Sequence record: PP925839.1
DNA from: Escherichia phage PinkRuby
Length of the DNA stretch: 64,000 nucleotides
Direction: 5' to 3' (one strand)
Shown: positions 57,659 through 58,297 of the stretch, piece after piece
How positions within the stretch are numbered: position 1 is the stretch's first letter
Layout: every line of letters begins with the position of its first letter
Program-made: the position numbers and the translations under genes
The notes under the pieces: model-generated
Databases searched by the model: none
What the model saw: only the letters and a program-made list of their open reading frames with translations
What the model was told of the DNA's origin: nothing

Positions 57659-57846
57659 TATTCTTCTACATGTTGTTTACGACCTTTCTTATCAATAAAG
57701 GTATATTCAACGAATGCCCCAATGTAGTCTTTATCTACATCATGTGGACTATTAATTGGACATTTAGTACGGCAAATGCGTTCCCATTGACGAATAATTA
57801 CTGCTTTGTTTTTAGGATCAAACGGATGTGGGTAATGCACTTTCAT
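57634..57846 (-). CDS. small hypothetical protein
   Basis: 70-aa ORF. Confidence 0.45.
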   Translation of the reverse strand: MKVHYPHPFDPKNKAVIIRQWERICRTKCPINSPHDVDKDYIGAFVEYTFIDKKGRKQHVEEYCLKVTWL

Positions 57847-58297
57847 AATCCACCACTATTAAATCAATATCAGGAGTAAACATGTCGATTAATTTAGAAA
57901 CCTTATCCCAATCGCCGCCAGCAATACCACAACCTATGCGTGGAATGTAAATTACCGGTTTAAACAAAAGGGTTTCTGCCTGTAGATTTAATTCTATCAT
58001 GCAGTTTACTAAAGCACCATAATCAAGATTAGGACCTGGTTCGTATTGCGTATACAGGTTATAGCATATACCAAATCCCGTAGGACTATGTTTAAAAACA
58101 ATAGACATATCGCCTAATTTATCGCGAGAACCGTACTCAGTAGTAGTTTTATCTATTTCTAAAATTTTGGGATAGGCTCTGGCTAATTGACCCGCTACAC
58201 CTGAACCCATAGTATGAAAACAATTGCACCCGTGCGCAATAATATTACCTTGAAGAAATAGGGCGACAATATCGCCCTTGATATATTTTACAATCAT
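57818..58297 (-). CDS. macro-domain protein (putative ADP-ribose binding/processing)
   Basis: 159 aa; glycine-rich loops GNIIAHGCNCFHTMGSGVAG and IGCGIAGGDWDKV typical of macro domains. Confidence 0.55.
   Translation of the reverse strand: MIVKYIKGDIVALFLQGNIIAHGCNCFHTMGSGVAGQLARAYPKILEIDKTTTEYGSRDKLGDMSIVFKHSPTGFGICYNLYTQYEPGPNLDYGALVNCMIELNLQAETLLFKPVIYIPRIGCGIAGGDWDKVSKLIDMFTPDIDLIVVDYESALPTSV

Follow-up and report, generated by a model that had tools for sequence, protein, structure and literature searches.

A two-form macrodomain gene of a T4-like phage, tk.4 (adfM), as a probable orphan antitoxin against DarTG2

The window analyzed here, a 64,000-nt stretch of Escherichia phage PinkRuby (PP925839.1), is identified from its sequence as Tequatrovirus (T4-like phage) DNA. 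Its genes between thymidine kinase and the RegB endpoint follow the order tk, tk.1, tk.2, an extra ORF, tk.3, an ORF of 159 codons in the tk.4 slot, vs (valyl-tRNA synthetase modifier), vs.1, and regB, an order that matches the T4 annotation and annotated relatives. The 3.3 kb around the tk.4 ORF shares 99.8% identity with Escherichia phage vB_EcoM_Kelasse and 98-99% with numerous further Tequatrovirus records, and homologs of the 159-aa protein were found by tblastn in 2789 phage records. An earlier note on this DNA had described a 159-aa ORF within a tk-regB cluster; the ORF list returns it at exactly the same coordinates, and the flanking Tk and RegB proteins, each 99% identical to those of T4, confirm the context (Table 1).

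Table 1. Features of the window, with positions, strand, and identity of the encoded protein to its T4 counterpart.
Feature	Position	Strand	Protein identity to T4	Evidence and remarks
ModA	11778-12380	minus		PHROG 832
ModB	12377-13012	minus	95%	PHROG 832
gp61.2 homolog (AdfA)	18200-18826	minus	97%	T4 homology
tk (thymidine kinase)	56485-57066		99%	T4 homology
Extra Cys-rich ORF, 75 aa	57431-57658	minus		Between tk.2 and tk.3; PHROG 2306
tk.3	57634-57846	minus	94%	Downstream neighbor; first 29 nt overlap the 3′ end of tk.4; PHROG 2008
tk.4/adfM CDS, stand-alone macro domain, 159 aa	57818-58297	minus	58%	ORF, Pfam, PHROG, AF2, Foldseek, T4 homology
Divergent cassette in tk.4 (about codons 16-149)	57850-58250	minus		Sliding DNA identity to T4
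Glycine-rich loop 2, I121-G-C-G-I-A-G-G128	57914-57937	minus		Diphosphate/distal-ribose loop; conserved in relatives
Gln84 codon (CAA)	58046-58048	minus		Position of catalytic Lys84 of TARG1 and Lys80 of DarG
Glycine-rich loop 1, G31-S-G33-V-A-G36	58190-58207	minus		GxG loop after strand 2; same in T4 Tk.4
Asn25 codon (AAT)	58223-58225	minus		Equivalent to DarG N22, PhiKZ AdfM N23, SCO6735 N27
Hairpin AGGGCGA-TATTG-TCGCCCT	58260-58278	both		Inside tk.4 codons 7-13
vs	58294-58635	minus	97%	Upstream neighbor
6-nt deletion in vs signal peptide	58580-58590	minus		Relative to T4, in a short TTCTGC repeat
vs.1, 181 aa	58628-59173	minus		Own PHROG family, function unknown
regB	59181-59642		99%	T4 homology

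The tk.4 ORF begins with an ATG that overlaps the vs stop codon (TGA) in the tetranucleotide ATGA at 58294-58297, and its last 29 nt (57818-57846) overlap the start of tk.3. In T4, the gene between tk.3 and vs is tk.4, annotated 'phosphatase; Tk.4; contains A1pp phosphatase motif', and the window protein aligns with its product (NP_049723) without gaps over 155 aa, at 58% identity and 74% positives (E 1e-70). The ORF occupies the same slot and aligns gap-free over these 155 residues, and it is therefore identified as the positional ortholog of T4 tk.4, a gene now called adfM ('anti-DarT factor, macrodomain').

Several smaller features were observed around this gene. The extra ORF between tk.2 and tk.3 belongs to a PHROG family with no function assigned; T4 has no gene in this slot, where its tk.2 abuts tk.3, and DNA identity to T4 falls again past the tk.3 end. 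The short deletion in vs costs the Vs signal peptide two residues (Ser-Ala), and the remainder of the Vs protein is identical to that of T4. The vs.1 product has a signal-peptide-like N-terminus and, besides its own PHROG family, weakly matches a second one named 'lytic tail protein' (E 1e-5); it may be a secreted muramidase or transglycosylase-like protein. Elsewhere in the window, the longest ORF for ModB begins four codons upstream of the T4-annotated start (211 aa versus 207). The gene for gp61.2 has been described as that of AdfA, an anti-DarT factor (PMC11825919), and by homology the window is assigned a second anti-DarTG gene, adfA.

The earlier note had read the 159-aa protein as a macro domain from its two glycine-rich loops and had proposed profile searches and structure prediction as checks, and profile, sequence, and fold evidence all confirm that reading, with matches well above what chance would give. 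The Pfam Macro family (PF01661) was matched with 32 bits, above its gathering cut-off of 22 bits (E 1.3e-7), over profile positions 2-117 (116 of the 118), and PHROG 335, a family named 'phosphatase', was matched with an E-value of 1e-71. [quoted passage not shown] An AlphaFold2 model built from a 49-sequence alignment had a mean pLDDT of 94.1 and a pTM of 0.89, with six strands of 4-11 residues (seven with a bridge at residue 91) and five helices, arranged as the three-layer alpha/beta/alpha macro fold with a central mixed sheet. Foldseek matched this model to 170 PDB entries at E ≤ 0.001, and the best 50 of the 170 consist of macro domains and of designed proteins that take a macro domain as their basis. 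The top 17 are TARG1, BT1257, Poa1p, and DarG (TM 0.69-0.76, probability 1.00), with viral nsP3 and YmdB-type macro domains ranked below them, an order that the profile search reproduces. The protein is accordingly classed, on its sequence and modeled fold, as a stand-alone macrodomain of the ALC1-like class (TARG1/DarG/SCO6735/Poa1p).

Identification as a DarG antitoxin was considered and rejected. DarG is the sole PADLOC match, through its macro part, with E-values of 5e-7 for the window allele and 1e-9 for the T4 allele, and it is also the best NCBIfam match (NF048014), at 27.6 bits against a cut-off of 250 bits and over N-terminal profile positions 2-138 of 338. Only the macro part is matched, and the phage protein, at 159 aa, has no C-terminal DarT-binding domain. 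No darT gene lies next to tk.4, whose immediate neighbors are vs and tk.3.

Both glycine-rich loops described in the earlier note are present: residues 31-36 read GSGVAG and residues 121-128 read IGCGIAGG. In the first, G33 is found in 49/49 relatives and G31 in 42/49; in the second, G122 and G124 are invariant in the 49 relatives, and A126, G127, and G128 are each kept in at least 90%. The second loop aligns with 'IGCGLDRL' of TARG1 and 'IGCGLAGG' of BT1257, which places Ala126 of the window protein at the position of TARG1 Asp125. The residues invariant across all 49 relatives are G8, H22, G23, N25, C26, G33, A35, D49, N80, Y82, Q84, P119, G122, G124, and W130. Asn25 aligns with the corresponding Asn of BT1257 and of PhiKZ gp104, whose N23A mutant served as the control in the published PhiKZ AdfM assay (PMC13309987).

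The position of the catalytic Lys in TARG1 (K84), DarG (K80), and PhiKZ AdfM (K78) is occupied by Gln84, and a Gln is found there in 49/49 relatives, so that a catalytic Lys of this type is absent from these proteins. In the profile alignments, Gln84 falls opposite TARG1 K84 and opposite the Gln in 'GQHG' of BT1257, a residue that corresponds to Gln85 of SCO6735 (PMC9411070). A Gln at the catalytic position together with a conserved Asn is the SCO6735/BT1257 arrangement, and both Q84 and N25 align with BT1257. The mobile loop of SCO6735 and BT1257, which is about five residues longer than that of TARG1 and DarG, is absent by profile alignment: after the Gln, BT1257 carries a 6-residue insertion relative to the phage profile, whereas TARG1 aligns without gaps. 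Because of the Q84/N25 alignment and the short post-Gln loop, the T-even Tk.4 family is assigned SCO6735-type catalytic residues combined with a loop of TARG1/DarG length. For PhiKZ AdfM, the Lys-versus-Gln comparison rests on inspection of motifs, as the hhalign register that sets K78 opposite Y82 is probably two residues off and the T-K and T-Q motifs suggest that K78 corresponds to Q84.

The properties of SCO6735 itself bear on this arrangement. SCO6735 has neither the Lys/Asp dyad of TARG1 nor the Lys of DarG, yet it cleaves DarT-made thymidine-ADP-ribose on DNA faster than either enzyme; its Q85A mutant is inactive and its N27S mutant nearly so, and its extended basic mobile loop has been credited with DNA binding (PMC9411070). 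The window protein is acidic, with a pI of 5.0 (family median, 5.9).

Among the proteins compared with T4, Tk.4 stands apart in its divergence (Table 1), and the divergence lies in a core stretch of the gene with near-identical DNA on both sides. In DNA comparisons with T4, identity is 98-100% across vs and the initial dozen codons of tk.4, drops to 82-87% at 58170-58258 and 33-63% at 57850-58140, and returns to 88-97% in tk.3. At the protein level, identity is 84% over residues 1-45, 41% over residues 46-79, and 21% over residues 132-155, the last 24 aligned, with near 70% identity in the blocks around Q84 and loop 2. N25, Q84, G33, G122, and G124 are kept in both alleles. By megablast, the divergent core is of the window type in 302 phage records and of the T4 type in 225, all from genomes of ∼165-172 kb, and intermediates of 62-82% identity occur in other T-even-like phages and metagenomes. 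These distributions identify the ∼400-bp core of tk.4 as a dimorphic cassette, apparently exchanged by recombination. Such dimorphism is consistent with diversifying pressure on counter-defense genes and, equally, with neutral mosaicism. A perfect 7-bp G+C-rich hairpin, identical in T4, is located exactly where identity between the window and T4 begins to drop; the terminator-like scan that flagged it found five sites versus 2.4 ± 1.5 in shuffled sequence, and the hairpin could be an RNA structure, a recombination boundary, or chance.

The function of the T4 ortholog has recently been addressed genetically. On DarTG2 hosts, HIDEN-SEQ, a transposon sequencing approach in T4, singled out tk.4 and no other gene as significant, and a clean deletion made T4 sensitive to DarTG2, for which the gene was renamed adfM; it is dispensable on plain K-12 and important only with DarTG2 (bioRxiv 10.1101/2025.11.20.689424). 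The evidence for T4 AdfM is genetic only, and its authors state that enzymatic removal of ADP-ribose 'seems likely' (bioRxiv 10.1101/2025.11.20.689424). Loss of the anti-DarTG1 factors adfA and adfN leaves phages T2 and T4 still resistant to DarTG2 (PMC11825919), and a further factor was therefore predicted, a gap that tk.4/adfM fills. Independently, the name AdfM was also given to gp104 of PhiKZ, which removes thymidine-linked ADP-ribose (T-ADPr) in vitro (PMC13309987). The earlier note had proposed a knockout on hosts carrying DarTG, an experiment that matches the later T4 result. It had also offered three functions, among which the countering of host ADP-ribosylating systems agrees with the DarTG2 phenotype of the T4 ortholog, whereas its suggestion of Thoeris or another small signal found no support here.

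On this basis, the window protein is best explained, with a probability of roughly 0.7, as an orphan antitoxin that removes ADP-ribose placed by DarT2 on thymidines of phage DNA. The DarTG2 phenotype belongs to the T4 allele, from which we infer the activity of the 58%-identical window allele, and removal of T-ADPr by the T4-type protein itself is likewise a prediction. A stand-alone ADP-ribosyl glycohydrolase would be made from the same-strand early array regB-vs.1-vs-tk.4, with translation of tk.4 probably coupled to that of vs. Upon infection of a DarTG2 host, freed DarT2 would ADP-ribosylate thymidines in single-stranded phage DNA and block replication; the phage macrodomain, as an orphan antitoxin, would bind the ADP-ribose in the cleft that its two glycine loops form and hydrolyze the ribose-thymine bond, restoring replication. 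Catalysis probably follows SCO6735, with Asn25 setting the position of Gln84 and Gln84 orienting the distal ribose so that water can attack; the Lys-based route of TARG1, DarG, and PhiKZ AdfM is probably not used.

The tk.4 gene is probably expressed early. A promoter scan gave 14 promoter-like sites, versus 16.5 ± 4.2 in shuffled sequence, so that a dedicated promoter has no statistical support and early timing therefore rests on synteny with T4. One match just upstream of regB, TTTACT-17-TATAAT, is treated as a lead only, the scan overall being at the level of shuffles.

Several observations weigh against the orphan-antitoxin reading. The catalytic Lys and the SCO6735-type basic loop are both absent, the protein is acidic, unlike the electropositive SCO6735, and 42% of positions differ from the T4 protein that was tested. 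One rival reading keeps the fold and the chemistry but changes the targets: the window cassette would be adapted to other variants of DarT2, or to some different base-linked ADP-ribosylation of nucleic acid such as uracil-ADPr on RNA, and would not be interchangeable with T4 AdfM. That Tk.4 is an outlier at 58% while Tk, Tk.3, Vs, RegB, gp61.2, and ModB are 94-99% identical, and that each cassette type occurs in hundreds of otherwise similar phages, speak for such a shift in targets, and TARG1-like macrodomains, bacterial ones included, are able to reverse U-ADPr on RNA (PMC13036486). Yet the family-invariant residues of the ADP-ribose site are all kept in both alleles, a glycohydrolase acts on the product and should be independent of the DarT2 variant, as has been argued for AdfN (PMC11825919), and the divergence could equally reflect neutral recombination among T-even genera, where intermediates of 62-82% exist. 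A difference in targets between the two alleles is thus considered unlikely.

The inherited annotation points instead to a small ADP-ribose derivative as the substrate, whether ADP-ribose-1''-phosphate, as for Poa1p, O-acetyl-ADP-ribose, or an ADPr-derived immune signal of the Thoeris kind. T4 Tk.4 carries the label 'A1pp phosphatase motif', PHROG 335 goes by the name 'phosphatase', the closest relatives of solved structure include yeast Poa1p, and a general argument in this direction is available (PMC9503650). The name, however, is inherited with no test behind it, the only phenotype found for the T4 ortholog is specific to DarTG2 (bioRxiv 10.1101/2025.11.20.689424), and SCO6735, which belongs to the BT1257 group and is the nearest bacterial relative to have been characterized, removes ADP-ribose from DNA and protein (PMC9411070), all of which make a small-molecule substrate improbable. 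The phage also encodes ADP-ribosyltransferases of its own, and the macrodomain might reverse or tune ADP-ribosylation or RNAylation by Alt, ModA, and ModB. The earlier note was correct that ModA and ModB are encoded within the window, but the link it implied between them and the macro domain is not supported, as the two genes belong to another cluster some 45 kb from tk.4 and the linkage chemistry differs. Alt, ModA, and ModB are arginine-specific, and arginine-linked ADP-ribose is removed by ARH/DraG-type enzymes and not by the TARG1/DarG class; N-glycosidic Arg-ADPr is not known to be cleaved by macrodomains of that class. In T4, moreover, tk.4 is important only with DarTG2 and not on plain K-12 (bioRxiv 10.1101/2025.11.20.689424), and a role directed at the phage's own transferases is very improbable. 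Neutralization of CmdTAC, which ADP-ribosylates mRNA, was also considered and is unlikely, since CmdTAC strongly restricts wild-type T4 in spite of its tk.4 gene (PMC11618068).

The gene itself is not new: it has long been annotated in T4 as an A1pp/macro ORF, the anti-DarTG2 role of the ortholog has been published, and it is present in hundreds of database phages. What goes beyond annotation is the allelic cassette and the Gln-type active site with a short loop. A macro gene of T4-like phages long labeled 'phosphatase' is best read as an orphan-antitoxin counter-defense against DarTG2, one that would complement the anti-DarTG1 genes adfN and adfA, the latter also found in this window. What is useful to phage-host prediction and phage therapy is that tk.4 occurs in T4-like phages as one of two strongly diverged versions; if the two neutralize different DarT systems, the allele would help to predict host range. 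The substitution of Gln for Lys, in turn, is a clear target for mechanistic enzymology. A more ambitious synthesis joins these two aspects, with tk.4 as a dimorphic arms-race cassette conferring allele-specific protection and, family-wide, a Lys-independent Gln/Asn/water mechanism that operates without the extended DNA-binding loop of SCO6735. The two forms would then guard against different DarT2 enzymes or other nucleic acid ADP-ribosyltransferases, or evade a host factor that recognizes or inhibits one form. This synthesis is tentative and doubtful, and if true, it would make the T-even Tk.4 family a third mechanistic flavor of thymidine de-ADP-ribosylase.

The closest known system is T4 Tk.4/AdfM, which lies in the same slot between tk.3 and vs and is homologous without gaps over its full length (155 aa, versus 159 aa in the window). 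The N-terminal active-site block HGCNCFHTMGSGVAGQL is identical in the two proteins, which also have N25, Q84, the glycine loops, and a sole PADLOC match to DarG in common. The T4 protein differs in loop 2, where GAGIGKGNW replaces the GCGIAGGDW of the window allele, the latter being nearer the family consensus, and the window allele has four additional C-terminal residues, encoded in the overlap with tk.3.

Human TARG1/OARD1 (PDB 4J5R/4J5S) is the best Foldseek match (E 3e-10, TMt 0.84), with an equal loop length after the catalytic position and the IGCG motif in common, but its Lys84/Asp125 dyad is replaced by Gln84/Ala126 in the phage protein and identity is only ∼20%. TARG1 also reverses thymidine- and uracil-linked ADPr. 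DarG of DarTG2 (PDB 5M3E, 5M3I; NF048014) contains a homologous macro domain (E 4.8e-5 with the single sequence and 1e-11 with the profile, TM 0.76) and presumably acts on the same substrate, thymidine-ADPr made by DarT2; unlike DarG, the phage protein has no C-terminal DarT-binding domain (the PADLOC match covers positions 3-144 of 329), its gene has no adjacent darT, and Lys80 is replaced by Gln.

Among phage proteins, gp104 AdfM of the chimallivirus PhiKZ is likewise a stand-alone macro domain that neutralizes DarTG2, with N23 corresponding to N25 of the window protein, but it is of the Lys type (K78) and is a late-expressed protein that the phage nucleus imports (PMC13309987). The two proteins are distant, with an hhalign probability of 96% at 22% identity and a similarity that BLASTP barely detects. 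ICP1 AdfB, which came into consideration through a Vibrio phage among the tblastn matches, was rejected as a homolog, as it is a 77-aa non-enzymatic binder of DarT (PMC11481870).

SCO6735 from Streptomyces coelicolor and BT1257 (PDB 5E3B, 2FG1) resemble the phage protein in standing alone, with no paired DarT, in having Gln in place of the catalytic Lys with the supporting Asn kept, and in having Ala or Gly at the position of TARG1 Asp125. They differ from it in the loop after the Gln, which is short in the phage protein and six residues longer in BT1257, and in the acidity of the phage protein, and identity to this group is ∼26%. A homolog on the Pelagimonas phthalicica chromosome (6001-6459 of the locus examined) is 40% identical and is also a stand-alone macro gene with no DarT-like neighbor; on this evidence, the phage family is more like the free-standing SCO6735/BT1257 macrodomains of cells than like a set of captured DarG genes.
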